Positions 3,071 to 55,809 of a stretch of DNA of 60,093 nucleotides are shown here, in pieces. The position numbers were made by a program, and so were the translations under genes. The notes below the pieces were generated by a model. It made no database searches. It worked only from the letters and a program-made list of their open reading frames with translations, and was not told the origin of the DNA. How positions within the stretch are numbered: the stretch's first letter is position 1; each line of letters begins with the position of its first letter. The stretch is from Acidobacteriota bacterium. GTDB taxonomy: Bacteria > Acidobacteriota > Thermoanaerobaculia > Gp7-AA8. The DNA is taken from NCBI GenBank assembly GCA_039931435.1, contig JBDTRY010000003.1, positions 1 through 60,093 on the forward strand, given 5' to 3'.

Positions 3071-3780
3071 CTATCGGTATCCCGCGGCCTGCAACTCGAA
3101 CAGCTCTGCATATCGTCCGTGCTGCGCCAGCAGTTCTTCGTGCGTTCCGGAAGCCTCCAGCTGCCCTTGGGCGAGAACGAGGATTCGATCGGCCATTCGC
3201 ACGCTGGAGAAGCGATGGGAGATCAGCACTGCGGTCTTGCCTTCGCTCAATTCCTTGAAGCGTTGAAAGACTTCAAACTCGGAACGGGCGTCGAGCGCGG
3301 CGGTCGGTTCGTCCAGGATCAGCACCTGCGCGTCGCGCATGTACGCGCGGGCAATGGCAACTTTCTGCCATTCACCTCCCGAGAGATCCACTCCCGTGCG
3401 AAATCGTTTGCCGATGATCTGATCGTACCCCTGGGCCAATTTGCGGATGAGTTCATCGGCCATGCTGCGCTCGGCGGCGGCCCGGATGCGGGAACGGTCC
3501 TCCCGCGCTTCGATCCGTCCCACCGCGATGTTGTCGGCCGCGGTCATGTGGTAGCGGACGAAGTCCTGGAAGATCACTCCGATATTCGAACGGAGCGAAT
3601 TGAGGTCGAACTCGCGCAGATCGTGTCCATCGAGAAGGATTCGTCCTTCATCCGGTTCGTAAGGTCGGGCCAGCAACTTCACCAGTGTGGTCTTTCCCTC
3701 GCCGTTCTCTCCCACCAGGGCCAGCACTTCGCCCGCATGGAGCGTAAAGCTCAGGTTTCTCACTGCCCAGCGCTCGGCCT
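3071..3780 (-). pseudogene. Truncated duplicate of the ATPase half of the ABC transporter at 32440-34311
   Basis: 710 bp near-identical to 32440-33149; no membrane domain or native start; Walker A GENGEGKTT versus GENGAGKTT. Confidence 0.85.
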
Positions 3781-4195
3781 CGTGAGCGGGTATGGGTAAG
3801 AAGGGTCTACCATCGGATTTTGACGCAGAACCACGGTAGATCGAAGTCGGTGCTGGTCGAAGGGAACGATCGTTCCTCAGCACGCGACGAAAGATCCTGG
3901 AGTTGAAGCACTTGCGTGAGGCGCTGCCGCTGGCAAAGCGGGTCCTGCATCGGGTGGGAGTGACGCCGGTGGAGAACGAGCAGCTCAAGCGCTTCCCACG
4001 GCGCAGGCACCAACTGGTCGAGGAGAAGAAGCGGTGAGCAACCGGCCGTGGGCGGATCTTCAAGCGGTCTCGCCCGGGCTGCTGGAGATCGCCGGGGACA
4101 TCGACAACCGATGGTTCCTGAGCTTGCTGAGCTGTCGTCGGAAAATCAGGGTAGTTGGATCGCAGTTAGCAAGGGGATGACTCGAAGGAGAACTC

Positions 4196-4516
4196 ATGAG
4201 AATACGCTTTGTGTCCCTGGCAGCACTGACTTTCGTGATGACATTGCCGGCAATCGCCGCAGGCCCGGACGGGGCCGCACTCTTCAAGAAGTCGTGCGTA
4301 AGCTGCCATGGCGCCGACGGCGCCGGACAGACTACGATCGGCAAAAAGCTGAAGATGCGCGATCTTCGCTCGCCCGAAGTCCGGAAACAGACCGACATCG
4401 AGCTGATGAAGATCATCGCCGGAGGGAAGGAAAAAATGCCGGCGTACGGGCAGAAGATGTCGACGCCCGAGATCCAGGCGGTGATCGCTTACATTCGCAC
4501 ACTCAAAAGCGACTGA
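4196..4516 (+). CDS. Monoheme class I cytochrome c (periplasmic)
   Basis: Signal peptide, CVSCH, distal Met in KMPAY, RBS AAGGAG. Confidence 0.92.
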   Translation: MRIRFVSLAALTFVMTLPAIAAGPDGAALFKKSCVSCHGADGAGQTTIGKKLKMRDLRSPEVRKQTDIELMKIIAGGKEKMPAYGQKMSTPEIQAVIAYIRTLKSD

Positions 4517-4545
4517 AAAAGCGTCCCAACCGCAAGTCGTATCTT

Positions 4546-4594: not shown

Positions 4595-6535
4595 TCAGGG
4601 GTGCCAGCGGAGGTACACGCCGTAGCGGCTGGCATCGAACTTTCCGTATGACGGAGAGGGTTCGTCATATTTGTCGCGATCCCATTCGACCGCGACCCCT
4701 GTCTTCGACTTGAAGTCGTACGTGAGGCGAAGGCGATAGCGGTCCATGTCGAAGGGAGTCGTTCCGCTATTCTCGAATCGTCCCAGGCTGGTGTCGAGTG
4801 AGAACGGGCCGCGCAGGAAGCTCACGCCGCCTTCCCGCGCTTTGCCGTTTTCGCTATGAACCGACTCGTCGATGCTGAAGTTTTCCGGATGCCGGAAGCT
4901 GATGTTGCTGTCAGCTCGGAACTGCGAGAGGGATCCCCGCAGCCGCAACCAGGCCCTCGGCGCCACTTCAACGTCGCCGCTATATTGGCGGATTCGCGCA
5001 TCGTAACCGGCCTCGGGCCGGTCGTTGCTTTGATTGGTGCGCTCCGCGGTGAGGCCGGCGCGGAAGAAGTCCTTCGGCGAACTCCACGCTCCGCGAACGC
5101 GGACGCGATCACGATCGAGAAAATCAGTCCGAAAGACGGGATTGTCAGCATTGTCGGTGCGCCAGGCCGCGCCGAGCATGAGGCCGGACTGTCTAAACGT
5201 GCCGCTGACATCGAACGTATGCACGCGTCGGTCGAACTGGCCTTCCTGAGCGCCCGGCACAACGATTTCCGAGAGGTCCGGCGAAACCTTGACGTCCTGT
5301 TTCGATTCCCGATATTCACCACGAAGAGCAAAGGGTCCCAGGGCCCGTGCGGACACTGAGGCGTTGAGGACATCCTCGTTGCGGTCCAGGGAGCTGGACG
5401 CCTTCAGGATGGTCTCGAGGTCGCGCCGGTCTACCCCTCCGAAGGTGATGCTCTGAAGAAAAATCGTGGTGATGAGCGCTGAGCCGTCCAGCTCGCGATG
5501 CTCTTTCTGAAAACCAGCGGACACGTCGACGTTCGGATATACGGTGATTTCCGCCCGCCCGCCTCCGCGCCAGGTGGTGTTTTTTGCCGAGGAGCTGCCT
5601 TGCTCAGAGATCCCCGTGAAGAAGCGGCTGATGGGAAATGAAATGAACGTCCCGGCCGCGTTCTCGCTCTCGCTGCCGTCGGAGTCAGCGGCGAAGCGGA
5701 CGTAGTTGCCGATCAGGCGGATGCGCGTCAGTGGCTGGCCCGTGATGTAGAAATTCGTAAAGGGTGTGTCGACGTCGGTGCGGTCGGTGCGGCTGATGGT
5801 CTGGGCGCTGACGGGTTGGTCGAGGATGGATCCGGGATTGTTGCCGGCTCCCGCTCCGGAAGCGAGCGAGAGTGAATCAGTTCCACGAAAACTTCGCCAG
5901 CCCTGCGTCAGCTGACCCTGGACAGATCCGAAGTGAAATGATGCGCCGGCCCGGAGCTCGCGGTCCCGTTCCTTCAGATTGTTACTGAGGCGGAACTCGT
6001 CCTGCCCGAGGTTGTACGTTGTTGTTCCGGGACCATGGTTGTCGTTCCATGTGTAGCCGACGAACGGTACGATGGCTCGGTCCGGCAGCAGTTCCAGATC
6101 GACGTCGAGCATTCTGCGCGTGCGTTCGTAGGTGTGCTGTCCCGGGACGATACCCTCACCAAGCAGGGGATTTGCGAATCCGGGCAACGCACTGAATGCG
6201 TTTGTGGAGCGATACCCTACGCGCAGGTGATAGCGGCGGCTCTTTTCTGCTTCGATGCGAAGCGAGCCGGCCGGACCGGCTCCAAGGTCGCTGACATCGA
6301 CGCGGAAGCGGTCCATGAACGTGGTCCTGCCACTGAAATCGGACGTGGCCAGAGTGAAGTTGCGGATGAGCAGGCCGTCCCGCTCGTTGATCTGGGTTCG
6401 GTACATGTCCTCACTGCCTTTGAGATCGAGCCAGCGGTAGCCGATCTCGAGATCGAACGGCACCGTTTGCGCCTGGGCAGTGAAGGCGACCGCAACGACC
6501 GTTGCAGACAGCAATGTGGTGAGGATTCGTCTCAT
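4595..6535 (-). CDS. MtrB/PioB-like outer-membrane beta-barrel porin
   Basis: Signal peptide, alternating beta-strand pattern, C-terminal YGVYLRWHP, directly downstream of an MtrA-type decaheme. Confidence 0.8.
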   Translation of the reverse strand: MRRILTTLLSATVVAVAFTAQAQTVPFDLEIGYRWLDLKGSEDMYRTQINERDGLLIRNFTLATSDFSGRTTFMDRFRVDVSDLGAGPAGSLRIEAEKSRRYHLRVGYRSTNAFSALPGFANPLLGEGIVPGQHTYERTRRMLDVDLELLPDRAIVPFVGYTWNDNHGPGTTTYNLGQDEFRLSNNLKERDRELRAGASFHFGSVQGQLTQGWRSFRGTDSLSLASGAGAGNNPGSILDQPVSAQTISRTDRTDVDTPFTNFYITGQPLTRIRLIGNYVRFAADSDGSESENAAGTFISFPISRFFTGISEQGSSSAKNTTWRGGGRAEITVYPNVDVSAGFQKEHRELDGSALITTIFLQSITFGGVDRRDLETILKASSSLDRNEDVLNASVSARALGPFALRGEYRESKQDVKVSPDLSEIVVPGAQEGQFDRRVHTFDVSGTFRQSGLMLGAAWRTDNADNPVFRTDFLDRDRVRVRGAWSSPKDFFRAGLTAERTNQSNDRPEAGYDARIRQYSGDVEVAPRAWLRLRGSLSQFRADSNISFRHPENFSIDESVHSENGKAREGGVSFLRGPFSLDTSLGRFENSGTTPFDMDRYRLRLTYDFKSKTGVAVEWDRDKYDEPSPSYGKFDASRYGVYLRWHP

Positions 6536-6546
6536 CTCAGCCTCGC

Positions 6547-7557
6547 CTACTTCAGCAGTTGCGGATCGCGGTTGGAGCCGTGGACGGCAACGTGACAGGT
6601 CGTGCAGTTCTGAAAACGCGGGCTGCTGAGGTTATGAAACGACGGCGGTTGGGACCCCAGCGTATCGCCACCGATGGGCGAATGACATTCGATGCAGAGC
6701 TGCGCGACCGTAGCTCGTTTGAGCTGTTTCGGGTTCGAGGAACCGTGCGGCTCATGGCAGGTCATGCAGTCCCCGGCGGCCAGCGCGCCGTGCTGGAAAA
6801 CAAAGGGGCCACGCTTATCGGCATGGCAGGACAGACAGGGCAGCTCACCGGCACGGGTCCTGCGCAGGCTTTCTCTCCCCGGCATTCCGTGCGGCTCGTG
6901 GCACGATGAGCATTCCATTCCGCCCCGCCCGATCCGGTGAGCGAAGGGCTTGTTGCGCATCGAAGCTACCTGGGTCATGTGGCATGTGTCGCAGAGGGCC
7001 ATCTCCCGTTTTACCAGCAGATGCGGCGAGTGCGGGTCCGCAGCGTGAATGGCGTGGCAGGTCAGGCAATTGACCGCCGTTGAATTCGCGTGCACGCCCG
7101 CGTGACGGGAGACCTGGTCGGTGCTGACGTCGTGACAGGACAGGCAGGTTTTGTTCGCGCCCGTCACTCCCACCGGTTTGTAGATCTTGTCCGTTTCGCC
7201 ACCGCTCTCGATATGCGCTTGGCCGTCACCGTGACAGGTCTCACAGACCGCATTGGGAATCTCGCCGTCTTTCACCTTGCCATGACCATGCGGGTTCGAG
7301 CCGAACGTGGCCATGGCGTCATGGCACTGCGTGCAGGCAGGGAGCGCTTCCGCTTCACCAGCAGAAGCCGGCGTCGCTTCGGGAGTCGCCTCCGGCGAAG
7401 CCTCGGGCGAGGGCTGTTCGGCGGGCGCGGCCGTCGTGGTTTGCGGCTGTTCCGTGGGAGTGGGAGCGGGAGTTGTGGATTGCGGACCGCTGGCGCACAG
7501 CCCCGGCACGGCGAGACAGAGCACGAACGCGAGGGGCCCGATCCAACGGTGTCTCAT
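6547..7557 (-). CDS. MtrA/DmsE-family periplasmic decaheme cytochrome c
   Basis: 10 CxxCH counted; KRGPFVFQH and CHxxHGSN motifs. Start reassigned to ATG 7557 (MRHRWIG, RBS AGGAG). Pro/Thr/Glu-rich linker follows the signal peptide. Confidence 0.92.
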   Translation of the reverse strand: MRHRWIGPLAFVLCLAVPGLCASGPQSTTPAPTPTEQPQTTTAAPAEQPSPEASPEATPEATPASAGEAEALPACTQCHDAMATFGSNPHGHGKVKDGEIPNAVCETCHGDGQAHIESGGETDKIYKPVGVTGANKTCLSCHDVSTDQVSRHAGVHANSTAVNCLTCHAIHAADPHSPHLLVKREMALCDTCHMTQVASMRNKPFAHRIGRGGMECSSCHEPHGMPGRESLRRTRAGELPCLSCHADKRGPFVFQHGALAAGDCMTCHEPHGSSNPKQLKRATVAQLCIECHSPIGGDTLGSQPPSFHNLSSPRFQNCTTCHVAVHGSNRDPQLLK

Positions 7558-7575
7558 TTTTACTCCTGGACGCTG

Positions 7576-7599
7576 TGGGGGGACCTTGCGGTCCCCCCA
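7576..7599 (-). promoter_or_regulatory. Intra-operon stem-loop between mtrC-like and mtrA-like genes
   Basis: Perfect 10-bp stem TGGGGGGACC/GGTCCCCCCA, GCAA tetraloop on the transcribed strand, no U-tract. Confidence 0.55.
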
Positions 7600-7610
7600 T
7601 GCGCTCGACT

Positions 7611-9752
7611 CTATCGGGCGTGAACGCGCTCCACCGACCAGTCCTTGCCGGTGCCGTGGCAGGTTGCACAGGCTTCGGCGGGAGTGGTGCCTCCGGGGAA
7701 GGTGACCGTATTCAGGAACGCATGTGCGGCCGCATCTCTGTTGTCGTGGCAGCCCAGACAGGAAGCTGTGGCCGGACCCTGCGGACTGAAGTAGTCGCGA
7801 AGGGTGGTGACGGATCCGATCCTGGTGGGAAGAGGCAGCGTGTACGAAGTGCCGACGTGGCATTTCGCGCAATTGCGGAGATCACCAGGGAAGCGCACTT
7901 CGTTGAAGTTGTTCCGGCTGCCGCCGAACCCATAAATGGTGAAGTCCTGCGTCAGTTCCTCACCTTTATGAATCTTGTGGATCATCCGGTTGAAGGAGAT
8001 GGACTCGGCCGGTCCCTCCGTCGCCGGCCGCTGGGACTGATCGCCCTCGGTCGGATTGTGGCAGATGACACACTCCTCGGTGTTCATTCGCTGACCACCG
8101 TGAACTGCCAGCCGGTTGTGGCACTGGTTGCACTGTGCTGTCGAGACCACCATGCGGCGTGGGTCCACCGCCCCGGTCACGGCTACGTACTTGATGGGAT
8201 TGAAGGCCGCTTCCCGGACGGCAATGTCGGCCTTGCCGTCGGCGCGTTTCAGCGAGACGTTGCGGTAGATGTCGGCGCTGACCGTCCAGGTTCCACTGGC
8301 GTCGGCCGGTAGCGCATTGTTGAAGGTGTAGGAGGTGGTCCCTGTGGCCGCGTCGAAGACGGCTTTTGCCAGCGCGCTCTCGCGGAAGTACTTCGAGTAG
8401 CTTGAGGTCGGTCCACCAACGATGGGCGCGAACGTGGAGAGCTTCGTGCCATCGACCGCCGTTCCATCACCGTTCGTGATTTTGAACACGACCGTAGGCT
8501 TCTTGCCGGCGGCCATGTCGCTCACGCTGACGATCGTGGCCGAGATTCCCTTGAGCTGTTTCGATTTTTCAGGAATCGTATGCGCACCCTTGATGGAAGC
8601 GTCGAACTCCTGGCCGCTGTCAGGAATGTGGCAGGAGGCGCAGGCGCTGTCGTTCAACTGCGGGCCGCCCGGGTGATTTATCCCGGTGACCCAATCGATG
8701 TCGTCGTGGCACGAGCCGCACGCGGCGCGGCTGGGATAGGTGTACCAGGCGTTCGATTGCGCTCCCTTATTGTTCGGATCCGAGCCTTCGTGGCAGGTCG
8801 CGCAATTACGGATGTCCTGAGGGAAGGCCACGGTCGAGAAATCCACAACCGTCTGATTGAAGCCGATGATCTGGTAGGGAGTGCCGGCGATTACGCTGGG
8901 GAGGTTCTCGCCGCGGTGGATCTTGTGGGCCATGACCTTCATGTCCACTGTGTTGCCCGTATCAGGATCGGTGGTCTGCGGCTGATGGCAAAGCGCGCAC
9001 AACTTCACGTCCTGCCGGGCGCCGCCATGAGCGGAAAGCGGATCGTGGCAGCTGTTGCAGGTCGTGGCGGTGCGCATCTTGTCCCATGTCTCAGTGACCG
9101 GGGTGCCGTCCGGACGGAAGTCATATTCGACGTTGGCGACGTAGCTCTTTTTCAGTTCTTCGTCGATCCCCGGGACTGCGTTGAGCGCGCGTGTGGCGTA
9201 GATGCCGAGCGTATGGGTCTTCGTCACATCGAAGCCCGCGGGGAGTGCCGTTTTGAATGTGTATTTGACGTGCCCGGTCTCCAGGTCCATAAAGGTTCCC
9301 CCCGCGTCTGTGCCGGCCTGCATTGCGGACACGCCGGGATGGGGGCTGGACGGCGGGGTCGTCTGCGTCCGTACGGTGTACGACGTGTATTGCCGCGTCG
9401 CAGGGTCGTACCACGCCAGGATGAAGCTGATGGAGATCGCTCCCGGAGTGATCTTGCCGAGGCGGTCGAGCGGCTGATCGAGGGAATCCGTGATCGTGAG
9501 ATCGACCACCGGTCTGCGGTCGGAGCCGATCACGACGGAATTGACCTTGATCTTCAAACCCGGGCGGATGAATTCAATGGACTCCGGTGACAGGAATGAC
9601 TCGATCTCCGTTGAGGCAAACCCAGTCCTGTTCGGGTCCGACGGAGGCGCAGCCCCACGTCCCCGGCCCGTGGTCTCAGTGGCCAGCAGCGTGCTCGCGA
9701 ACAGCGCGGCCATCGATACCACGAGAACGGCGCGGTTCATCCCTGACTTCAT
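7611..9752 (-). CDS. OmcA/MtrC-family decaheme cytochrome c
   Basis: 10 CxxCH in two blocks of five, each preceded by a heme-free domain; LSAHGG/LAVHGG and MxHKIH motifs; start ATG 9752 after GGAGG. Confidence 0.9.
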   Translation of the reverse strand: MKSGMNRAVLVVSMAALFASTLLATETTGRGRGAAPPSDPNRTGFASTEIESFLSPESIEFIRPGLKIKVNSVVIGSDRRPVVDLTITDSLDQPLDRLGKITPGAISISFILAWYDPATRQYTSYTVRTQTTPPSSPHPGVSAMQAGTDAGGTFMDLETGHVKYTFKTALPAGFDVTKTHTLGIYATRALNAVPGIDEELKKSYVANVEYDFRPDGTPVTETWDKMRTATTCNSCHDPLSAHGGARQDVKLCALCHQPQTTDPDTGNTVDMKVMAHKIHRGENLPSVIAGTPYQIIGFNQTVVDFSTVAFPQDIRNCATCHEGSDPNNKGAQSNAWYTYPSRAACGSCHDDIDWVTGINHPGGPQLNDSACASCHIPDSGQEFDASIKGAHTIPEKSKQLKGISATIVSVSDMAAGKKPTVVFKITNGDGTAVDGTKLSTFAPIVGGPTSSYSKYFRESALAKAVFDAATGTTSYTFNNALPADASGTWTVSADIYRNVSLKRADGKADIAVREAAFNPIKYVAVTGAVDPRRMVVSTAQCNQCHNRLAVHGGQRMNTEECVICHNPTEGDQSQRPATEGPAESISFNRMIHKIHKGEELTQDFTIYGFGGSRNNFNEVRFPGDLRNCAKCHVGTSYTLPLPTRIGSVTTLRDYFSPQGPATASCLGCHDNRDAAAHAFLNTVTFPGGTTPAEACATCHGTGKDWSVERVHAR

Positions 9753-9854
9753 TCGAGCCTCCATAAACGGCCTCTGGCTTCCATTTTCACTTTTGGAGCG
9801 TTTGGAGCGTATTGTATCCGAAGTGGCCCGTCGCTGCCCGCCAACACGCACACA

Positions 9855-9870
9855 TGTGACTGCCGTCACT
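9855..9870. promoter_or_regulatory. CRP/FNR-family-like site upstream of the mtrC-like gene
   Basis: TGTGA-N6-TCACT; TACAAT -10-like hexamer on the minus strand at 9811-9816. Confidence 0.4.
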
Positions 9871-10030
9871 TCAGCAGGTGAGTGACAACAACTCTGGCTC
9901 ACCAGGAATGGCGATATATTAGAAAGCCTGTCTGGCTCGCAGTCGCACGGTTCTTGTTCTCATTTTCTCATTCCCATCCCGGCCGTTTCTGCTCCGCTTT
10001 GTCAAAACGACTAAAGAAAGGCTTTACCTC

Positions 10031-10594
10031 ATGAGCGCAGATCAGCAGCAATCACAAATGTCACCCAAGCTCGCGTTCCTCCTGGGAGCCGGGACAGCGG
10101 TGGTCCTGGCGTTGATCGTAGTCTTCGCAATGAGAGATACGCGTCCGGACTCTTCGTCGGCTGATGCTGGTTCGCCTTCAGTGAACAGATCGGTGGCGCT
10201 CCCATTCGAAACGAGCGCCGGAACTACGAGCGGAGCAATCGATCCCGCTCTGAACGCTGATCAGCCTGGCGTGATCTCCGGCACGATTCTTCTTGACGAG
10301 GCCGCGGCGAAGACCGTCTCCGGAAAAGTGATCGTGTTCGTCATCGCCCGCGCCGGCACCGGCAAAGGGCATCCCGTCTTTGCCAAGCGTCTGGACGTGA
10401 CCTCGTTTCCGGTGGCGTTCTCGCTCGGCGCCCGCGACTCGATGATGGCCCAGCCGCCGTCCGATCACCTGCGGCTGGAGGCGCGGATCGACCGAGACGG
10501 CGATGCCATCACCCGGGAGGCGGGTTCGCCCTCGGCAACCATCGAGTCCGTGCCTCTCGGCGCTCACGACGTTACGCTGAAGTTGCGGCTCTGA
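10031..10594 (+). CDS. Membrane-anchored protein with CcmI/CycH C-terminal Ig-like domain
   Basis: N-terminal TM helix; ISGTI...VFVIARA...PVFAKRL...FPVAFSL...DSMM...EARIDRDGDA matches the CcmI C-terminal pattern; no TPRs. Confidence 0.65.
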   Translation: MSADQQQSQMSPKLAFLLGAGTAVVLALIVVFAMRDTRPDSSSADAGSPSVNRSVALPFETSAGTTSGAIDPALNADQPGVISGTILLDEAAAKTVSGKVIVFVIARAGTGKGHPVFAKRLDVTSFPVAFSLGARDSMMAQPPSDHLRLEARIDRDGDAITREAGSPSATIESVPLGAHDVTLKLRL

Positions 10595-10682
10595 CGTTTC
10601 ACCAATGCTCGAAAGCGCCGATTGCCCCGATCTGCTCGAAACCACGATTACCGGTGGTCTCGCCATCCCGAAGGAGTAACGA

Positions 10683-12164
10683 ATGAACGACGCCCCACGG
10701 AAACCGAGTCTGTCCCGGAACGTCATCAGTGCCATCGGCGCATTGATCGTGTTCGTCGCTCTGATGAACACGATCTTCCTGATCTATATAGACAGCCGGC
10801 AGACTCATGGAAGCCCGTACCTGGGTATTCTGGCCTGGATCGTCGGTCCCGCCATTCTGTCTTTCGGACTCATTGTCTACATGGCCGGACTGCTGATCGA
10901 GAGACGCCGCCGTCGTATGCGGGCGCCGGATGACATTCCGCAATACCCGGCTATCGACCTGAACGTCCATCGAACACGAATGATCGTGGCCAGTATCTTT
11001 GCCGGCGTCATCCTCTTCGTCACCGCCAGCGTCATCGGCAGTTTTCAGGCCTTTCACTACACCGAATCGGACGAATTCTGCGGAACGGCATGTCATCAGC
11101 CGATGCATCCTGAGAACATCGCTCATCAGATCTCACCACACGCCAGGGTCGCTTGCGTTGCCTGTCACGTGGGAGGGGGAGCGGAGTGGTACGTCCGTTC
11201 AAAAATCAACGGCACCCATCAGCTCATGGGTGTGATCACAGGCAACTACAAACGTCCCATCGCCACGCCGATCAACAATCTCCGGCCGGCGCGGGACACC
11301 TGCGAGCAGTGTCACTGGCCGGAGAAAAACTTCGGAGATCAACTGAAGGTCTTCAGCCACTACCAGTACGACGAGCAGAGCACGCCAACGGAAGTGCGTC
11401 TCCTGATCCACGTTGGAGGCGGTAGCCCCGCCACGGGTGTGGCCCCCGGCATTCACTGGCACATGAATCTCGCAAACAAAATCGACTATGTCGCTGTGGA
11501 TCCTCAGCGTCAGGACATTCCATGGGTTAGGATGACCGACCGCAACGGCAAAGTCACGGATTACGTTCGAGAGGATTCGAAGGTGACGCCGGCGCAGATT
11601 GCAAACGCGCGGCAGATGGACTGTTTGGACTGCCACAGCCGTCCGGCCCATAACTACCTCTCACCAGACCGTGCCGTGGACCGGGCTCTGCTCACGGGAT
11701 CGATCGATCGCTCGCTGCCCTACGTCAAGCAGCAGGCCGTGAACATTCTCTCGAAGAACTATGGATCGACAGCGCAGGCAGTGAAGACCATCGGTAGGGA
11801 CTTCCCCGCCTACTACAGCAAGACCTACCCGGCCGTTTACGCTGCCAGGCGAGCTTCCGTGGACCACTCCATGAAAAGCCTTCAACGGATCTTCCAGTTC
11901 ACACGCTTCCCTGAGATGCGCGTCGACTGGCGGACACACCGGAACAACCTCGGTCACATGTACTCGCTCGGTTGTTTTCGCTGCCACGACGACCAGCACG
12001 TAAGCAAGGACGGCAGGCGAATCAGCAAAGAATGCTCGATCTGCCACGAAGTGCTGAGCGCTCCTGAAGGGAAAACGGCTGAGTTCCAGCATCCCGTGGA
12101 CCTGGGAGACCTCCGCGACATGGTCTGCACCGATTGCCACACCGGCGGAGATATGACCCAGTAG
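10683..12164 (+). CDS. ImcH-like NapC/NirT-family membrane multiheme cytochrome c (putative quinol dehydrogenase)
   Basis: Three N-terminal TM helices, YTESDEFCGTACH (CX3CH) plus six CxxCH = 7 hemes, 493 aa. Confidence 0.82.
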   Translation: MNDAPRKPSLSRNVISAIGALIVFVALMNTIFLIYIDSRQTHGSPYLGILAWIVGPAILSFGLIVYMAGLLIERRRRRMRAPDDIPQYPAIDLNVHRTRMIVASIFAGVILFVTASVIGSFQAFHYTESDEFCGTACHQPMHPENIAHQISPHARVACVACHVGGGAEWYVRSKINGTHQLMGVITGNYKRPIATPINNLRPARDTCEQCHWPEKNFGDQLKVFSHYQYDEQSTPTEVRLLIHVGGGSPATGVAPGIHWHMNLANKIDYVAVDPQRQDIPWVRMTDRNGKVTDYVREDSKVTPAQIANARQMDCLDCHSRPAHNYLSPDRAVDRALLTGSIDRSLPYVKQQAVNILSKNYGSTAQAVKTIGRDFPAYYSKTYPAVYAARRASVDHSMKSLQRIFQFTRFPEMRVDWRTHRNNLGHMYSLGCFRCHDDQHVSKDGRRISKECSICHEVLSAPEGKTAEFQHPVDLGDLRDMVCTDCHTGGDMTQ

Positions 12165-12492: not shown

Positions 12493-13008
12493 CTACGGCT
12501 CGCGACCCTGGTGCACCGGCAATCCGGCAGACTGCCATGATGCGAACCCTCCCAGAAGGGCGCCCGAGTCCATTCCACCGCTGGTAATGATGAGCGCCGC
12601 ACGGGCGCTCGATTCTTCGGCCGGTCACGTGCAGTAGGTAATGATCGGTTTACCCCGCGGAAGGTATGGCAGCTCGCCCTGAATGTACGAAAGCGGGATG
12701 TGCATTGCGCCGGGGATATGCGCCGCCACGTACGAATCGATGTCACGCACGTCGATAGCCCTGATCTCCCCCCGCTCCAATTTGTCCCTGAACGCCTTCA
12801 GCGGCATACGAGCAACGGAATCCAGCGAGGGGGCGGAAAACGGGGCCGGTGCGCTGGAGAACGGTGTGCCGGTCATGACGGGCGCGTTCGCGGCCACCGC
12901 ACTCCCGGCAGCCGGAGCTGGATTGGAAGCGCGCGTGGCAGCCCATCCGATGATCACCCCGACGACTGCCCCGGCGGCCACATAGGCGGTGATCTCCTGC
13001 CCTTTCAT
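12493..13008 (-). CDS. Membrane-anchored rhodanese-like protein, probable selenoprotein (CxU; UGA at 12625-12627)
   Basis: IDVR...HIPGA...YCT-TGA-PAEESSARAALIITSGGMDSGALLGGFASWQSAGLPVHQGREP-TAG; the rhodanese C-terminal signature lies in frame after the TGA. Confidence 0.85.
12592..12610 (-). promoter_or_regulatory. Candidate bacterial SECIS hairpin
   Basis: GAGCGCC-CGUGC-GGCGCUC, a 7-bp stem starting 14 nt after the UGA, with GU in the apical loop. Confidence 0.65.
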
Positions 13009-13128: not shown

Positions 13129-13434
13129 TTACTTCTTCAGGCTGCGCACGAAGGCGATGACAGCCTCCATATCCTGGGCGGAAAGTTTGGAGGGTTTCAT
13201 CTTTCCTTTACCTTCGGCGAGGATTTTCGTCATCTCCACGTTGGTGAGATTCTGAACCTCCGGCGTGCCGAGATCCTTCAGCTTGAGATTCTTCCCGATC
13301 GTCGTCTGTCCGCTTCCGTCCGCCCCGTGACAGGCCGCGCATTTCGCCTTGTAAATGGCCGCGCCATCGGCGAATGCGGCCACGGGCAGAGCCAGCGCCA
13401 GCAGCACCGCACAGGTCAAAGTTTTCTTCTTCAT
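13129..13434 (-). CDS. Monoheme class I cytochrome c (paralog of 4196-4516)
   Basis: MKKKTL signal peptide, CAACH, GKGKM; shares CHGADGxGQTTIGK with the first copy; RBS GAGGAG. Confidence 0.92.
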   Translation of the reverse strand: MKKKTLTCAVLLALALPVAAFADGAAIYKAKCAACHGADGSGQTTIGKNLKLKDLGTPEVQNLTNVEMTKILAEGKGKMKPSKLSAQDMEAVIAFVRSLKK

Positions 13435-13518
13435 CAATGACTCCTCTTTCGTTTTATATTCAAACATTCTTGCCCCACACTGTATTTCGTCGGCAGGTGA
13501 TTAAACACGGCAGATTCA

Positions 13519-14165: not shown

Positions 14166-14927
14166 TCACCACGCCACGAGCGCAGGCTGCTGCTGCGAGA
14201 GCCAGTCCTGAAGGCCTTCTTTCGTGTCGACAAGGAGCATGCCGCGCATGCGGTAGTGGCCGAGCCCGCATAGCTGCGCGCAGGCGATCTCCCACTGTTC
14301 GCCGTTGTTGGTGCGCGTTGGCGTGAAGTGAATGGGAATCTCCATGCCTGGAACGGCATCCTGGTTGACGCGCATGACCGGAAGCTTGAAGCTGTGAATG
14401 ACGTCCTTTGACGAGATGTGAATGACCACCGGACGATTCACCTCCAGGTGAAGCTCGTTCAGGGTGTTCAGGTCGTCCGTGGCATGCGGATCCTTCGCAT
14501 CGAGCCCGAGGGGATTATCCACCGAGACGAGGGTCACATCCCGCCTGCCGAAGATGCCGTCGGGACCCGGATAGTGGACATTCCACGCAAACTGCTCGGC
14601 CACGATCTGGATCTCCAGCGGCTTCACATTGCCGGCGAGCGGCTGAGCCCAACGCGTCCATGCGGGGATCGAGTATCCGAACAGGTCAACGAGCTCGACG
14701 GCGAACACCGCGATGATGAGATAGACCGGCCAACGCGAGCGCATTCCCCCGTAACTCACGGGCTGGTGCCCACCGGCGCGAAAACGAATCAGCACGTAGA
14801 TGATGTATGCCGCCCAGAAAACGAACAGAATCACGATCATCCAGTGGATTTCGATCAGCAACTTGTCGATTTCCCATCCGTGGCGGGAGTAGTCGGGCGG
14901 CATGTGTCCGAGCAGAAAGTGTTTCAA
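14166..14927 (-). CDS. coxB: Cytochrome c oxidase subunit II (CuA)
   Basis: Two TM helices, EQFAW, DVIHSF, CAQLCGLGHYRM; probable TTG start overlapping the upstream TGA. Confidence 0.9.
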   Translation of the reverse strand: MKHFLLGHMPPDYSRHGWEIDKLLIEIHWMIVILFVFWAAYIIYVLIRFRAGGHQPVSYGGMRSRWPVYLIIAVFAVELVDLFGYSIPAWTRWAQPLAGNVKPLEIQIVAEQFAWNVHYPGPDGIFGRRDVTLVSVDNPLGLDAKDPHATDDLNTLNELHLEVNRPVVIHISSKDVIHSFKLPVMRVNQDAVPGMEIPIHFTPTRTNNGEQWEIACAQLCGLGHYRMRGMLLVDTKEGLQDWLSQQQPALVAW

Positions 14928-15202
14928 GGCCGACCCCCTTCGATCAACACGAACGGCTCCGGTTTCATGGAGAACTCCCGTGATCGGCGCCAAAAGCTCC
15001 AGAAGAGGGTGGCGAATCCGATCTGGACGAGCCCGACGACAGCCAGGAGAAAGAGAATGGCGTAGTTCATCGACTTCGCCGCCTGGGAGCCGGCGGCCGC
15101 CCCGAAACAGACCGGGCAGGCCATTGCGGCGGGCGCGAACACCAGCAGTGCCACGGCGGCGAGCGCGGCGACGGTCGGGATGCGCAGGGCCGGTCTGGTC
15201 AT
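14924..15202 (-). CDS. Small oxidase-operon membrane protein with CPVC motif
   Basis: Signal peptide, ACPVCFG, one TM helix; coupled to both neighbours by overlaps. Confidence 0.7.
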   Translation of the reverse strand: MTRPALRIPTVAALAAVALLVFAPAAMACPVCFGAAAGSQAAKSMNYAILFLLAVVGLVQIGFATLFWSFWRRSREFSMKPEPFVLIEGGRP

Positions 15203-15396
15203 AGATTCATCAGCTTTCGGAAAACTCGTCCCGCATACGCGACGAGAGCGACCCCACAGAACACGAACATGATCGCCAGAACGAGCGCGCTGCTGTTCCT
15301 GGTGGCGAGAAACTCTCGAAAGCCCCAGACGGCCACGAAGACCGACAAGCCGATCGACACGGTAATGAAGACGATGTGAAAGTGACGAAGCCCCAT
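15199..15396 (-). CDS. Small two-TM oxidase-operon protein
   Basis: MGLRHFHIVFITVS..., two hydrophobic helices, ATGA overlap with the next gene. Confidence 0.7.
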   Translation of the reverse strand: MGLRHFHIVFITVSIGLSVFVAVWGFREFLATRNSSALVLAIMFVFCGVALVAYAGRVFRKLMNL

Positions 15397-15400
15397 GCTG

Positions 15401-15808
15401 TCACCGTCCGATGGCATCGACGAAGCCCTGCCACGGTCCCCAGAGGAGAAAGGAAAAAAAGAAGAGCGTCACGCCGAGAACCGAATAGATCAGTTTCTTC
15501 TCCGAGAGTAGATGCATGAAGAATCCGGCAACCAGAAATCCTTTCGTGCAGGCGATGACCAGGGCGATGGCGATGGCGGTGTGCACCGGCATTTTCAGTC
15601 CGTAGCACGCCCAGACCGTGAGCGCGGTCAGCGCGGCGAGGGCGCCAAAGACGATGAGATAGACGCGCATCTCCCGCCGGATCTCCTCGGGAGTGTGATG
15701 AAGATTCGGGTCGTGCACTCCGCCGTGGGTATGCTGATCTTCAGCGCGGCTCGCCGGCAGCGGCATGCCGTCGGACGGGGCGTTCGGTTGAATCACTTGT
15801 TCGCTCAC
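15401..15808 (-). CDS. Cytochrome c oxidase subunit IV family protein
   Basis: YLIVFGALAALTALTV...KGFLVAGFFMHL; GTG start after AGGAGG. Confidence 0.85.
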   Translation of the reverse strand: MSEQVIQPNAPSDGMPLPASRAEDQHTHGGVHDPNLHHTPEEIRREMRVYLIVFGALAALTALTVWACYGLKMPVHTAIAIALVIACTKGFLVAGFFMHLLSEKKLIYSVLGVTLFFFSFLLWGPWQGFVDAIGR

Positions 15809-15816
15809 CGGTCCTC

Positions 15817-16440
<624 letters not shown>

Positions 16441-18306
16441 TCAGACCTCCTTCTGTGCCACGGTCGTCTTCGGCAACATCCCGCCGCTCAGGGCAGGGGC
16501 CGGACGCAACTCGAGATTCTGGGGAAGATAGTCCGCAGTCTGGTAGTCCGGCGAGTTGTACTCGTAAGGACCGCGGTAGACGATCGGCAGCACCTCGAAA
16601 TTCCCGTGGGCCAGCGGCGGTGAGGTGGCGGCCACCCATTCGAGCGTGGTGGCTTGCCACGGATTGTCGTCGACGTTCTTCTTGTGCCGCGCGGCCTGGG
16701 CCACGTTCCAGACGAAATTCACGATGAACGGAATCTGCGCGGCGAGGAGGCACCAGGCGGAGATAGAGATGAACGGATTCGTCGCTGCGGCCGCCGCCTT
16801 CGCATGCGCGTACTGCAACCCGCCGTCATACATGCGTCGCTGCACCCCGGCCAGACCCTGGAGAAACATCGGAAGGAACACGCCGTTCATGAACAGGAAC
16901 GAGCCCCAGAAGTGCACTTTTCCCAGAGTGTCGTTCAGCTTTCGCCCCGTGACTTTCGGGAACCAGTAGTAGATGCCTGCGAACAAGGCGAAGATCGTCC
17001 CCGGCGCTACGATGTAGTGAAAGTGGGCGATGACGTAGTAGGTGTCGTGCAGATGGAGGTCCGTGGTTGCCAGGCCAAGGGGAAGCCCGGTCAGCCCGCC
17101 GAGCCCGAACATGGGAAGGAAGGCGACGGCAAAATACATCGGGGTCGTCATGCGTATCGAGCCACCCCAGAGAGTGACGAGCAACACCGTCAGGATGATC
17201 ACCGAGGGGATGGAGATGATCATCGTCGTGGTCTGGAAGAAGCCGCTGACCATCGCTCCCATGCCGGTGATGAACATGTGGTGCGCCCAGACCACGAAGG
17301 ACATGAAGCCGATCCAGAGCACCGAGTAGACCAGCCAGCGATATCCCCATATGGGCTTGCGGGTGTTGTTGGCGATGACCTCGGTGATGATTCCGAGCGC
17401 CGGCAGGATCAGGACGTATACCTCGGGATGAGCCAGGAACCAGAACAGGTGCTGCCACAGCAATGGATTTCCACCGCCGGCGACCGCAAGTCTTTCACCG
17501 CTGACAACCAGGTCTGCCGGCAGGTAGAAGCTCGTCCCCGCCACGCGATCCATGAACTGCAGGATGGCGCCCACCTCGAGTGCGGGAAAGGCGAGCAGCA
17601 GCAGGAACGATGTGACGAACTGGGCCCAGACGAAGAACGGCAGGCGCATGAAGGTCAGCCCCTCGGCCCGAAGCTGCACGATCGTAACGATGAAGTTGAT
17701 CGAGCCGAGGAGAGAGGATGTGATCAGGAAAACCATTCCCACGATCCAGAAGGTCTGACCACGGGATGCAATATCCGCGAGCGGAGGATAGGAGGTCCAG
17801 CCTGAAGCGGCGGTTCCCAGCGGAAGGAAAAAGCTCGCCAGCATGATCATGCCGCCGGTGAAGTACGCCCAGTAGCTGGCCATGTTGAGCTTGGGGAATG
17901 CCATGTCCGGCGCGCCGATCTGCAGCGGCACGATGTAGTTTCCAAAGGCGCCGACCGCCAGCGGGACAATGGCCATGAAGACCATGATCGTGCCGTGCAT
18001 CGCGCCCAGCTGGTTGTAGCCCTCGGGAAGCATGATTCCGCCCGGCGCGCGCGACTCACCGAGAATTCTGAACAGACGGAATGCATGTCCGGGCCAGCCG
18101 AGCTGCAGACGCATCAACAGCATCAGGCTGAAGCCGAATAGCAGAAATACGAGCGCCGTCACTCCATACTGAATCCCGATCCACTTGTGATCCGTGGAGA
18201 ATACATAGCGGCGAATCCAGGATAGATGATGCTGCCCTCCGGCTTCGACTGCCGGTGCCCCGCCGCCGGAAGGCGAGAGCGCGGGGTCATGGGGTGTCTC
18301 AGACAT
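16441..18306 (-). CDS. coxA: Heme-copper oxidase subunit I, A family
   Basis: STDHK, HGTIMVF, PDMAFP, HPEVY, WAHH, HDTYYVIAHFHY, RR. Confidence 0.95.
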   Translation of the reverse strand: MSETPHDPALSPSGGGAPAVEAGGQHHLSWIRRYVFSTDHKWIGIQYGVTALVFLLFGFSLMLLMRLQLGWPGHAFRLFRILGESRAPGGIMLPEGYNQLGAMHGTIMVFMAIVPLAVGAFGNYIVPLQIGAPDMAFPKLNMASYWAYFTGGMIMLASFFLPLGTAASGWTSYPPLADIASRGQTFWIVGMVFLITSSLLGSINFIVTIVQLRAEGLTFMRLPFFVWAQFVTSFLLLLAFPALEVGAILQFMDRVAGTSFYLPADLVVSGERLAVAGGGNPLLWQHLFWFLAHPEVYVLILPALGIITEVIANNTRKPIWGYRWLVYSVLWIGFMSFVVWAHHMFITGMGAMVSGFFQTTTMIISIPSVIILTVLLVTLWGGSIRMTTPMYFAVAFLPMFGLGGLTGLPLGLATTDLHLHDTYYVIAHFHYIVAPGTIFALFAGIYYWFPKVTGRKLNDTLGKVHFWGSFLFMNGVFLPMFLQGLAGVQRRMYDGGLQYAHAKAAAAATNPFISISAWCLLAAQIPFIVNFVWNVAQAARHKKNVDDNPWQATTLEWVAATSPPLAHGNFEVLPIVYRGPYEYNSPDYQTADYLPQNLELRPAPALSGGMLPKTTVAQKEV

Positions 18307-21931: not shown

Positions 21932-23827
21932 TCACGCCGACGGTGTTCGAATAGCGGCAGTCCGTGAGCCAATAACATCGAGATCGCGCAGAGCCATTCG
22001 GGGCACCGCCACGCGTAAAGCGTTGAGCACCGCCAGAACGTCGATCACTTCCTGCGCGATCGCGCCTGGCACCGGCGAGAGCCAGCCAGCGGCCGCGGCC
22101 AGCATGCCGATCATGCTCAGGCTCATGCCGCCGATCGCGCTTTGCAGGGCGATGGTGCGCATCCGCCGGCCGATGTGGATCAGCTCATCGACCTCGGCCA
22201 GCGAGGGCTCCAGCACCACCGCGTCGGCGGCTTCCGCGGTGATGTCGTTGGCGTGCCCGAAGGCGACGCTGACCGTGGCCGCCTCCATTGCCGGCGCGTC
22301 GTTGATGCCGTCGCCGAGGAAGAGGGTCGGGGCCTTCGCCGTCTCCTCGCGTACGATGGCCAGCTTTTCTTCGGGGCTCGTTCCGGAACGCACGATCTCA
22401 ATGCCGACCAGCGCCGCGAGATGCTGCACCTCGGCCTCGCGGTCGCCCGACACCAGCATCACGCGGGTGACCTGGTGGCGCGGAACGAGGTGCCCGACGA
22501 ACGACCGGCTTTCATCTCTCGGAACGTCCTGAAACCGCAGCGTGGCCGCGTATTCGCCGTTGCGCAGAATGATGCACTCCATGCCGGGAGCGGCCGGCGG
22601 CAATTGCGCAGATATTGCGGTCAACGCGATCTGTTTCCGGCCGGTGATCTCGATCACGTCCTCGGCGATTCTGCCACGCAATCCGTGGCCCGGCTGTTCG
22701 CTGATCTCAGTGACGGCGATGGGCACGATTCCCTCCGCGCGCGCCGCCTCGAGAATGCTCGTGGCCAGAGGATGCCGCGAGTACTGCTCGAGACTCGATG
22801 CCATCCTTAGCACGCCCTCGCGCGTCAACCCGGAGGCGCAAAGGACGTCCGTCAGCGAAGGTTTTCCGTAGGTCAGAGTCCCGGTCTTGTCGAAGATGAT
22901 CGTACGGCAGCGATCGATCCGTTCCAGCATTGCCGGATTCTTGATGATGATTCCCCGGGCCGCCGCCAGCGAGATCGCGCCGAGGATTGCAACCGGAATT
23001 GCCAGGAGGAGCGGACAGGGCGTAGCGATGACGAGGACGGAAAGGAACCGCCGAGGATCGCTGCTGAGGATCCATGCGGCGGCGGCAACGACCAACGCCA
23101 GCAGCGTGTACCAACCGCCGAGGCGGTCGGCAATCCTCCGAAGCTGCGGCCGTTGCGCCTCCGCCTGCTCCATCACTTGAACGATCTTCGCGTAGCGTGA
23201 GTCGACGGGAAGCGTCGTCACGACGATCGTCATCGCATCAGAACCGTTGATCGCCCCGGACAAGACCGCCGAGCCGGGCGCCTTTCCGATCTGAAACGGC
23301 TCGCCGGTCAGATACGACTCGTCCATTGCTCCGTGACCTTCCACGACCGTTCCGTCCGCCGGACAGGTTTCATGCGGCAGCACGACGAGGCGGTCGTCGA
23401 TCCGGACGTCGCCTGTGGGGACCTCCACAATCCCTGTATCCGTCAACCGGTGCGCCTGGCTTGGCAATCGTTTCGCGAGTGCGGAAAGGACGGCGGACGC
23501 TCTGCGCATGGCGTAAAGCTCGAGCGCCGTTCCACCGGCCATCATCAGCACGATGATCGCGCCGGCCAGATATTCGCCGAGGATGGCCGCAGTGACGATG
23601 CATAGGCCGGCCAGCGCGTCGGCTCCGACCTCGAGTGCGGCCAGCTTCTTCAGCAGATCGAAGAGCAATGGAGTGCCGGCGATGAGCACCCCGATCAGCG
23701 GCCAATCGCTGTGGTGTGCGTGACACAGAAATCGCAGAACGAGATAAGCGGCGATGCCGAGGAGCGAAGCAGATGCGATCCATGTCTCCTTGGATGGCAT
23801 GTTCCTATCGCGCGGCAGCGCACTCAT
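21932..23827 (-). CDS. Heavy-metal P-type ATPase, P1B-5-like
   Basis: TGE, TPCP, DKTGTLT, HP, GDGIND; QSAIGGMSLSMIGM and PVPGAIAQEVIDVLAVLN fit P1B-5 TM motifs; no hemerythrin domain. Confidence 0.88.
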   Translation of the reverse strand: MSALPRDRNMPSKETWIASASLLGIAAYLVLRFLCHAHHSDWPLIGVLIAGTPLLFDLLKKLAALEVGADALAGLCIVTAAILGEYLAGAIIVLMMAGGTALELYAMRRASAVLSALAKRLPSQAHRLTDTGIVEVPTGDVRIDDRLVVLPHETCPADGTVVEGHGAMDESYLTGEPFQIGKAPGSAVLSGAINGSDAMTIVVTTLPVDSRYAKIVQVMEQAEAQRPQLRRIADRLGGWYTLLALVVAAAAWILSSDPRRFLSVLVIATPCPLLLAIPVAILGAISLAAARGIIIKNPAMLERIDRCRTIIFDKTGTLTYGKPSLTDVLCASGLTREGVLRMASSLEQYSRHPLATSILEAARAEGIVPIAVTEISEQPGHGLRGRIAEDVIEITGRKQIALTAISAQLPPAAPGMECIILRNGEYAATLRFQDVPRDESRSFVGHLVPRHQVTRVMLVSGDREAEVQHLAALVGIEIVRSGTSPEEKLAIVREETAKAPTLFLGDGINDAPAMEAATVSVAFGHANDITAEAADAVVLEPSLAEVDELIHIGRRMRTIALQSAIGGMSLSMIGMLAAAAGWLSPVPGAIAQEVIDVLAVLNALRVAVPRMALRDLDVIGSRTAAIRTPSA

Positions 23828-54822: not shown

Positions 54823-55809
54823 TCAGTGAACGATTCCGGCGCGGATCAGAAGAAGAGTGGTCACGCCCACCACCGCCCAGAGAGCGAGGGCCATCATCAG
54901 TGGGCGTGGCCCGACCTTCCGCAGTGCCTGCCGGGAGATGTTGCTTCCGATCAGAAAGAGCGTAACGGTCAGTCCGATTCTCGCGGCACCGTAGAGGAAC
55001 GAGTAGATGCCTCTGCCGGCGGGAAGCCAGCTGTTGACGCAGGCAGCGATCACGAAGAAAAGAATGAACCAGGGCAGGCGGATTTTCGCTTTGCTGCGGC
55101 GCACGGCGGCGGTGATCAGAGCCAGGGGAACGATCCAGAGCGCTCGGGCCAGCTTTACCGTCGTTCCGACAGCGAGTGCCACGGCCCCGAACTTCGCAGC
55201 TGCGCCGACCACCGAGCTGGTGTCGTGAATGGCCAGCGCGGCCCATAATCCGAATTGCTGCTGGGTCATCCCCAGCGCCACACCGATCGGAGGAAAGGTC
55301 AGTAGAGCCACCGAGTTCAACAGAAAAACCGTGGCCAGTGAGACGCTGATCTGTTCGTCGCTTGCCTCGGTGATGGGCGCGACCGCGGCGATGGCGCTTC
55401 CACCGCAGATGGCCGTCCCCACGCTGATTAGAAAGGCGCTGACGGGATCGATCGACAAGATTCGTCCCAGCAGCGTTCCCAGAAGCAGGGCGAAGGAGAT
55501 TCCCACGGCCGTATAGAGGAAGCCACTGCTTCCGGCCTTGATCACTTCGTAGAGGTTCATTCCGAAGCCCAGGCCGACGACGGAAGCCTGCAGAAGAAGT
55601 CGGGAGAATCTCTGGCTTTCCGAAAGCCAGGGGTGCGGAAAGGTAAGTCCGAAACCGATTCCCAGGAGTAGAGCAAGGGGCGGAGAACCCCAGGGAGACG
55701 CCGAGAAAAGGAGCAGGACGAGAAAAGCGAGTCTGCCTGCCCGGCCGCCACCCTTGCCGGATGAAGGCGCGGACGGTGCCGGAAGTGTCTGTTCGCCGGG
55801 CTCGGTCAA
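54823..55809 (-). CDS. YeiH-family putative sulfate exporter
   Basis: GTAICGGSAIAA, AIHDTSSVVGAA, TTVKLARALW. Confidence 0.9.
   Translation of the reverse strand: MTEPGEQTLPAPSAPSSGKGGGRAGRLAFLVLLLFSASPWGSPPLALLLGIGFGLTFPHPWLSESQRFSRLLLQASVVGLGFGMNLYEVIKAGSSGFLYTAVGISFALLLGTLLGRILSIDPVSAFLISVGTAICGGSAIAAVAPITEASDEQISVSLATVFLLNSVALLTFPPIGVALGMTQQQFGLWAALAIHDTSSVVGAAAKFGAVALAVGTTVKLARALWIVPLALITAAVRRSKAKIRLPWFILFFVIAACVNSWLPAGRGIYSFLYGAARIGLTVTLFLIGSNISRQALRKVGPRPLMMALALWAVVGVTTLLLIRAGIVH

Follow-up and report, generated by a model that had tools for sequence, protein, structure and literature searches.

The described systems closest to the locus reported here are the Mtr pathway of Shewanella (CymA, FccA/CctA, MtrCAB) and the inner-membrane cytochrome ImcH of Geobacter. 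In Shewanella, CymA is a tetrahaem cytochrome of about 190 amino acids (aa) with a single transmembrane segment, and MtrC is a lipid-anchored lipoprotein with a lipobox Cys. The locus in question is an imcH–mtrCAB cluster within a 60,093-nucleotide (nt) stretch of DNA (contig JBDTRY010000003.1 of assembly GCA_039931435.1, positions 1 to 60,093, forward strand; henceforth the window) from an acidobacterium of the class Thermoanaerobaculia (lineage Gp7-AA8). Here, the genes for an outer-membrane conduit, in the order mtrC–mtrA–mtrB, diverge from a two-gene unit that encodes an ImcH. A first-pass annotation of the window had proposed a hybrid electron-transfer chain at positions 4595–12164, coordinates that proved exact on re-check. 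The source genome (4.3 Mb in 414 contigs) is 82% complete, the composition of the window is even (guanine-plus-cytosine content, 0.57 to 0.64), and the DNA data sets that contain it are rhizosphere and soil metagenomes.

ImcH of Geobacter sulfurreducens (GSU3259) has three transmembrane segments, seven haems, and a first haem motif of the form CXXXCH; its gene is monocistronic, and the organism has no MtrC (Levar 2014, PMC4251993). A Geobacter metagenome-assembled genome (MAG) that we searched likewise gave no MtrC match. Functionally, the ImcH family is characterised by menaquinol oxidase activity and by being needed for extracellular acceptors of high potential. The wider family has been described as having three transmembrane segments, an atypical CX3CH motif beside the transmembrane domain, and five to nine CXXCH motifs; Acidobacteria supplied 19 of the 71 ImcH homologs in that survey, whose text records no mtrAB or mtoAB adjacent to imcH (Zhong and Shi 2018, PMC6295460). 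As in the present locus, Mtr conduits accompanied by CymA, NetBCD, or MtoC/MtrH–CbcL are encoded together with small periplasmic cytochromes and a quinol dehydrogenase, whereas ImcH in that role figures in the text of neither survey of such clusters (Baker 2022, PMC8805035; PMC6295460). Acidobacterial MtrCAB is in print from five Acidobacteriia clusters, assigned to Group 5 and described as having no inner-membrane quinone oxidoreductase nearby (Baker 2022, PMC8805035), and also elsewhere (PMC8787282); a Thermoanaerobaculum aquaticum MAG encodes one MtrC and two MtrA (PMC9671151). Desulfuromonas acetexigens, like the organism studied here, combines Geobacter-type inner-membrane cytochromes with an Mtr conduit, and its ImcH, CbcL, CymA homolog, and MtrCAB are all expressed on electrodes; unlike here, a CymA homolog is present and is assigned to the Mtr pathway, and the account describes no linkage between imcH and mtr genes (PMC12133095). 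Our full-text literature search returned no description of imcH–mtrCAB linkage, although supplements of the 2018 and 2022 surveys may list cases. As judged from gene content, the cluster appears to be a previously undescribed version of the Mtr pathway whose parts are all known and which is widespread in an abundant soil phylum.

Identification of ImcH

The first-pass annotation had described an ImcH-like NapC/NirT protein with three transmembrane segments, seven haems, and one CX3CH motif, encoded in a two-gene unit, and each of these features was found (coordinates are collected in Table 1). Kyte–Doolittle analysis places the hydrophobic segments at about residues 10 to 28, 47 to 65, and 95 to 113; the first haem motif is CGTACH at residue 133, and the CXXCH motifs lie at residues 158, 207, 314, 431, 451, and 482. 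The protein scores 44.4 bits against PF03264 (NapC/NirT; cut-off, 24.1), and its gene starts 88 bp past the small gene that precedes it.

In BLASTP, the protein matches its ortholog in the Geobacter sp. MAG (locus L064) at 42% identity over 487 aa (E = 3e-148), and all seven haem motifs are collinear with those of the Geobacter protein (at 132, 157, 206, 312, 429, 449, and 487). We take the 504-aa L064 protein to be the Geobacter ImcH because it begins MTLRKT and has E127, C132, C136, H137, K173, Q179, and Y188, which fits G. sulfurreducens ImcH as published: a menaquinol oxidase with the N-terminus MTLRKT, H137 and Q179 as proximal and distal ligands of haem 1, and conserved E127, K173, and Y188 (10.1101/2023.05.03.539133). 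Residues E128, H138, K174, Q180, and Y189 of the acidobacterial protein follow the published register, offset by one, so that the likeness to G. sulfurreducens ImcH extends from the three transmembrane segments, the CX3CH first haem, the six CXXCH motifs, and the NapC/NirT homology to the E/K/Q/Y register. With offsets taken without gaps, the (E/D)KQ(Y/F) pattern recurs in 116 of the 120 close homologs examined and in 98 of 150 more distant representatives.

A tree built quickly with IQ-TREE had 50 rows: 47 ImcH-family proteins, NapC and TorC of Escherichia coli, and an NrfH-like protein from an acidobacterium, with Shewanella CymA not among them. The 47 ImcH-family rows split from this outgroup with a Shimodaira–Hasegawa-like approximate likelihood ratio test (SH-aLRT) value of 96, and the window's protein falls inside the family, where seven own-family relatives and a Thermoanaerobaculia MAG join it in a clade (support, 100). 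By its alignment to the Geobacter protein, its signature residues, and its position in the tree, the 493-aa cytochrome is a true ImcH, and the ImcH-like assignment of the first-pass annotation thus survives the alignment and the tree, within which CymA was not represented. The family is large (a representative library has 3,209 homolog clusters at E ≤ 1e-3 and 705 at E ≤ 1e-30), and its only structurally solved relative is NrfH, which matches over the first-haem region. CymA was considered as an identity for this gene and rejected, given its single transmembrane segment and four haems versus the length, three segments, and seven haem motifs found here.

The mtrC–mtrA–mtrB genes

The window's conduit genes resemble the Shewanella Mtr pathway in their order, in the NCBIfam families of both decahaem cytochromes, and in a barrel that is MtrB-like by fold. 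MtrC scores 508.6 bits against TIGR03507 (OmcA/MtrC; cut-off, 209.3), is matched by PF22113 in two stretches, and among PDB sequences finds MtrF (3pmq, 5e-36) as well as OmcA, UndA, and MtrC (6r2q_C). MtrA scores 208.9 bits against TIGR03508 (the MtrA/DmsE family; cut-off, 192.2) and matches chain A of the Mtr complex (6r2q_A, 5e-34). The open reading frames (ORFs) listed for mtrA and mtrC in the first-pass annotation begin too far upstream; the true starts are at 7557 and 9752, the latter an ATG preceded by a GGAGG at a spacing (GGAGG-N5-7-ATG) conserved in relatives. Gaps between the genes are short (53 bp for mtrC–mtrA and 11 bp for mtrA–mtrB).

Sequence searches failed to name the barrel: it matches no NCBIfam family (TIGR03509 is missed), Pfam gives only a sub-threshold Porin_4 match, and searching the PDB with a 13-homolog profile brings up no MtrB. 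The top Foldseek match of its AlphaFold2 model (mean predicted local distance difference test score, 77.1) is MtrB (6r2q_B; E = 7.6e-13, template-modelling [TM] scores of 0.66/0.65), followed by OprC (E = 4.3e-9; TM score, 0.48), with other matches to 22-strand transporters at TM scores of 0.48 or below. As modelled, the barrel is MtrB-type by fold and too divergent for recognition by sequence. Because this model best matches MtrB, the gene order is read as mtrC–A–B, and the Shewanella order claimed initially holds, through family membership for the two cytochromes and through fold for the barrel.

Other features depart from Shewanella. The inner-membrane partner is the heptahaem ImcH instead of CymA, and no CymA-type gene was found; the cluster has no FccA/CctA-type gene and instead has monohaem cytochromes c; and the barrel escapes TIGR03509. 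In addition, no lipobox Cys was found in MtrC, which has no Cys ahead of its first haem motif (residue 282 of the long ORF) and is for that reason taken not to be a lipoprotein.

Table 1. Positions and properties of the features of the imcH–mtrCAB region in the window
Feature	Coordinates	Strand	Description
Monohaem class I cytochrome c	4196..4516	+	106 aa; PF13442 and PF00034; convergent with mtrB
Terminator-like hairpin and T-run	4509..4533	-	62 nt past mtrB stop; consensus match only
mtrB-like outer-membrane barrel	4595..6535	-	646 aa; no Cys; fold match to MtrB
mtrA-like periplasmic decahaem cytochrome	6547..7557	-	336 aa; 10 CXXCH; TIGR03508
mtrC-like extracellular decahaem cytochrome	7611..9752	-	713 aa; signal peptide; 10 CXXCH; TIGR03507
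Divergent intergenic region, mtrC versus small-gene/imcH unit	9753..10030		278 bp
CRP-like palindrome	9855..9870		TGTGA-CTGCCG-TCACT; conserved GTGAY-N4-RTCAC core
Small membrane-anchored CycH/CcmI Ig-like protein	10031..10594	+	187 aa; one transmembrane segment; PF23892 (Ig_CycH), E = 3.1e-12
imcH, inner-membrane heptahaem cytochrome, ImcH family	10683..12164	+	493 aa; three transmembrane segments; CX3CH plus six CXXCH
Second monohaem cytochrome c	13129..13467	-	112 aa; PF00034 and PF13442; downstream of imcH
aa3-type cytochrome c oxidase operon	14166..18306	-	COX2, COX4-like, COX3, COX1

Linkage of imcH and mtrCAB in Thermoanaerobaculia

Two hundred other Thermoanaerobaculia genomes, whose relatedness means that they are not independent samples, were scored for MtrC, for ImcH, and for the distance between them. 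Sampling the class around a MAG labelled Thermoanaerobaculia gave the same places as sampling it around the source genome, which identifies the class. MtrC was present in 92 and ImcH in 113, and among the 83 with both, imcH lies on the same contig and within 12 kb of mtrC in 32 (31 of 82 without the unpublished linked genome G179). Eleven of the 32 belong to the family of the source organism, with the two genes divergent in 10; the other 21 come from other families, and in 20 of these imcH is co-directional and downstream of mtrCAB. Sixteen linked loci were retrieved as stretches of 17 to 20 kb and gene-mapped (L numbers denote loci and G numbers genomes), which shows the following arrangements:

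(i) In the source organism's own family, imcH may be directly divergent from mtrC (L082 to L084).

(ii) In a second own-family layout, genes for a PF01578 cytochrome c assembly protein and a CycH-Ig protein stand between mtrC and imcH (L085 and L086).

(iii) In a third (L087 to L090), an 11-haem CbcL/MtrH-type protein with a C-terminal cytochrome b561 domain is encoded ahead of imcH.

(iv) Loci of other families typically run in one direction with mtrC–mtrA–mtrB first, followed in most mapped loci by some of a monohaem cytochrome c and a CbcL-type cytochrome (present as a single gene or divided between two); in three loci, an 18- to 19-haem cytochrome sits beside imcH. The Mtr-linked ImcH of these families has five CXXCH motifs plus the CX3CH.

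The two sets of Mtr-linked ImcH occupy different branches of the tree, the other-family set grouping with Geobacter ImcH (SH-aLRT, 95). Since they derive from different ImcH branches, common descent of a single arrangement seems an unlikely cause of the linkage.

Some accessory genes recur with the cluster. CbcL/MtrH-type genes (11 to 12 haems plus b561) overlap or abut imcH directly upstream at L087:7543-9471, L088:10612-12543, and L093:10388-12598; clusters with such a gene carry both Geobacter-type quinol oxidases, and the source genome shows no such gene. PF01578 (CcsA/CcmC-like) genes are divergent from mtrC at L085:9868-10704, L087:10305-11150, L088:9710-10450, and L090:11099-11794, with a CycH-Ig gene usually coming after them. 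Homologs of the window's small CycH-Ig protein (45 to 52% identity) occur in the same cluster of four relatives, each adjoining a PF01578 gene, and the protein is probably an accessory of cytochrome maturation; the window keeps the CycH-Ig gene only, without a PF01578 partner.

Linkage outside the class

In a sample of 400 other Acidobacteriota genomes, MtrC (E = 1e-40 or better) was found in 30, of which 16 lie outside Thermoanaerobaculia; 14 of these 16 have an ImcH match, at most 8.2 kb away in 7. The tightest linkage seen is L113:6129-12851 (G511, from another Acidobacteriota class), a co-directional mtrC–imcH–mtrA–mtrB with gaps of 128 and 89 bp. Another locus outside the class (L115) reads mtrCAB–tetrahaem–imcH–monohaem c. 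The placement of imcH inside the mtr operon suggests that transfer from ImcH to MtrA may be direct or run via one small cytochrome.

For comparison, 80 ImcH loci were drawn from named genomes, mostly non-Acidobacteriota (Geobacter contributes 2), with up to 8 kb of flank each. None of the 80 has an MtrC neighbour, and MtrA-like decahaems (E = 1e-20 or better) occur near ImcH in a few (L036, L051, L025, L055, and L045). Among the genomes examined, full imcH–mtrCAB linkage was seen only in Acidobacteriota.

Does ImcH serve the conduit?

The first-pass annotation had proposed that ImcH replaces CymA as the quinol oxidase. That part of the proposal which concerns the absence of an alternative is supported as far as the searched genomes go, in that imcH is the sole PF03264 match in the 82%-complete source genome, as it is in the near-complete relatives G055 (one contig, 97% complete) and G036; G014 has an additional, 152-aa NrfH-like gene besides imcH. 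That ImcH would feed the Mtr conduit goes further, and for this the recurrent linkage in several arrangements offers strong comparative support. The proposal is to be corrected in treating ImcH as acting alone: a CbcL/MtrH-type cytochrome adjoins imcH in many relatives, and gene neighbourhoods suggest that the inner-membrane module in this clade is often ImcH plus CbcL. No CbcL-type gene was seen in the source genome, where the lone cytochrome b561-type match has no c-haem neighbour.

Several observations weigh against a dedicated role for ImcH. Among the 83 class genomes with both genes, mtrC and imcH are on different contigs in 47 (many of these assemblies being fragmented) and on one contig but 20 to 650 kb apart in 4; in G087, a single-contig genome from the source organism's own family, the separation is 270 kb. 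Nine class genomes have an MtrC match without an ImcH match, and therefore another quinol oxidase can serve Mtr in this class. The source genome, beyond its incompleteness, also has two NrfD-type quinol-interacting modules, and its MtrC, unlike that of Shewanella, is without a lipoprotein Cys.

In one alternative, the neighbours have no dedicated link: ImcH would be a general periplasmic electron hub or serve another acceptor, Mtr would be fed by another quinol oxidase such as a CbcL-type or NrfD-type module, and adjacency would reflect only the common maturation needs of cytochrome genes. In its favour are the CbcL/MtrH-type genes often found directly upstream of imcH in relatives, the precedent of CbcL/MtrH–mtrAB clusters (Zhong and Shi 2018, PMC6295460), the genomes with MtrC and no ImcH match, the unlinked genes of G087, and the presence of cytochrome-maturation genes in the same cluster. 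We nonetheless consider it unlikely, in that the linkage recurs in at least five arrangements, two ImcH lineages, and several classes, once with imcH between mtrC and mtrA, and that the source genome shows no CbcL-type gene.

The divergent region and its palindrome

The divergent region of about 280 bp reported by the first-pass annotation measures 278 bp, from the mtrC start to the start of the small gene. It contains a CRP-like palindrome that precedes the mtrC ATG by 104 nt and the small-gene ATG by 162 nt and matches 9 of 10 positions of the CRP consensus TGTGA-N6-TCACA. In an alignment of the mtrC upstream sequences of the window and seven own-family relatives, the flanks are poorly conserved and the GTGAY-N4-RTCAC core stands out. 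The palindrome lies about 88 to 104 nt upstream of mtrC in 9 of 10 own-family loci and in none of 7 other-family loci; where mtrC and imcH are apart in relatives, it stays with mtrC and not with imcH.

In Shewanella oneidensis, the mtrC and omcA promoters are under direct positive control by CRP, whose consensus is quoted in the same paper (PMC4417206). The source genome has three Crp-type helix-turn-helix genes, and a common regulator for both divergent units is plausible, nothing more. Scanning the 278-bp region for the sigma-70 consensus gave no promoter-like site, a negative that is uninformative for this phylum. Co-regulation of imcH with mtrCAB, the remaining element of the initial proposal, is thus only partly supported, by the shared intergenic region and its conserved putative operator.

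The core occurs three times in the window, versus 0.18 expected. One further exact copy (55961-55974) lies in the gap where a membrane protein gene (54823-55809, minus strand) diverges from a histidine kinase/LuxR response-regulator pair (56175-58585, plus strand), and another (22644-22657) lies within a P-type ATPase gene. These sites may mark one regulon.

Flanking genes and the direction of electron flow

Monohaem cytochromes c flank the cluster on both sides. The one convergent with mtrB is a generic class I protein (c552/c6-like; best PDB sequence match, c-552 7o38, 7e-12), and homologs fall within the retrieved stretch in 6 of 9 own-family loci; homologs of the one downstream of imcH (63 to 70% identity) lie near the cluster in L082, L083, and L087. 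Both are candidate periplasmic carriers, judging from sequence and position.

Farther downstream, an aa3-type oxidase operon adjoins a rhodanese-domain gene (12625-13008) and the second monohaem cytochrome c; the organism probably lives as a facultative aerobe. The oxidase was considered as part of the system and rejected, as no COX1, COX2, or COX3 homolog occurs in any of the 16 relatives' loci.

The same genes bear on a chain running inward, in which MtrCAB would take electrons from Fe(II) or reduced humics, small cytochromes c would feed the nearby aa3 oxidase, and ImcH would reduce quinone in reverse electron flow, in the manner suggested for MtoAB–CymA/MtoC in iron oxidisers. The two flanking cytochromes and the oxidase operon would suit such a chain; Mtr conduits can run in either direction (Zhong and Shi 2018, PMC6295460), and mtrC stands beside cytochrome c oxidase genes in another acidobacterial lineage (PMC8787282). 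The oxidase is not, however, a conserved neighbour in the relatives; an MtrC-type surface cytochrome is present here, which is reported as lacking or unidentified in known oxidising systems (10.1101/2022.03.26.485925); Fe(III) reducers are the only organisms from which ImcH homologs are reported (Zhong and Shi 2018, PMC6295460); and G. sulfurreducens ImcH is characterised as oxidising menaquinol (10.1101/2023.05.03.539133). With these points on either side, we regard an inward chain as quite improbable.

Elsewhere in the window, an ABC-transporter ORF (3071-4063) has an ATPase domain only, behind about 100 residues of low-quality N-terminal sequence, and may be a truncated or frameshifted copy; a full-length paralog with its membrane domain lies at 32440-34311. 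Unrelated to the imcH–mtr finding are a secreted protein that combines an ice-binding-like domain with He_PIG Ig repeats (29769-31133) and, at the start of the contig, two proteins with Calx-beta domains (3-895).

Proposed pathway

We judge it likely that the locus encodes an extracellular electron-transfer pathway assembled from two known modules, with ImcH feeding MtrCAB outward. We infer the outward direction and the order of hand-over as follows. ImcH, held in the inner membrane by its three helices, would oxidise menaquinol at the first, CX3CH-bound haem and move the electrons along its seven haems into the periplasm, from where they would reach MtrA either without an intermediary or by way of the small soluble cytochromes c whose genes flank the cluster. 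MtrA, threaded through the MtrB barrel, would reduce surface-exposed MtrC, which in turn would pass electrons to extracellular acceptors such as humics and minerals of Fe(III) or Mn(IV). The CycH-Ig protein probably helps in the maturation of the large cytochromes, and the palindrome in the promoter region that the two units share is the probable target of a CRP/FNR-type regulator. A cultured member of the class, Thermoanaerobaculum aquaticum, is reported to reduce iron (PMC8787282, PMC9671151).

More broadly, MtrCAB may have ImcH as its cognate inner-membrane entry point, alone or together with a CbcL-type partner, in all Acidobacteriota; we put this generalization forward tentatively and hold it to be somewhat doubtful.

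Implications

Acidobacteriota are among the most abundant soil bacteria, and their role in the redox cycling of iron, manganese, and humics is poorly defined. The conserved imcH–mtrCAB cluster provides a concrete genetic marker for extracellular respiration in the phylum, better than mtrC or imcH alone. The electron recipient of ImcH has been an open question since the protein's discovery, and its interaction partners, once found, "will greatly improve" prediction (Levar 2014, PMC4251993); genome context now nominates MtrA and a small cytochrome c. If ImcH is indeed the cognate entry point of the Mtr conduit, the cluster would name the long-sought periplasmic partner of ImcH and would constitute a self-contained extracellular electron-transfer cassette in a very abundant soil phylum. 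The pairing of imcH with mtr genes is found repeatedly in the phylum and probably represents a single pathway by which extracellular minerals are respired, and the cluster presents the Shewanella and Geobacter pathways as interchangeable modules and not as separate systems.

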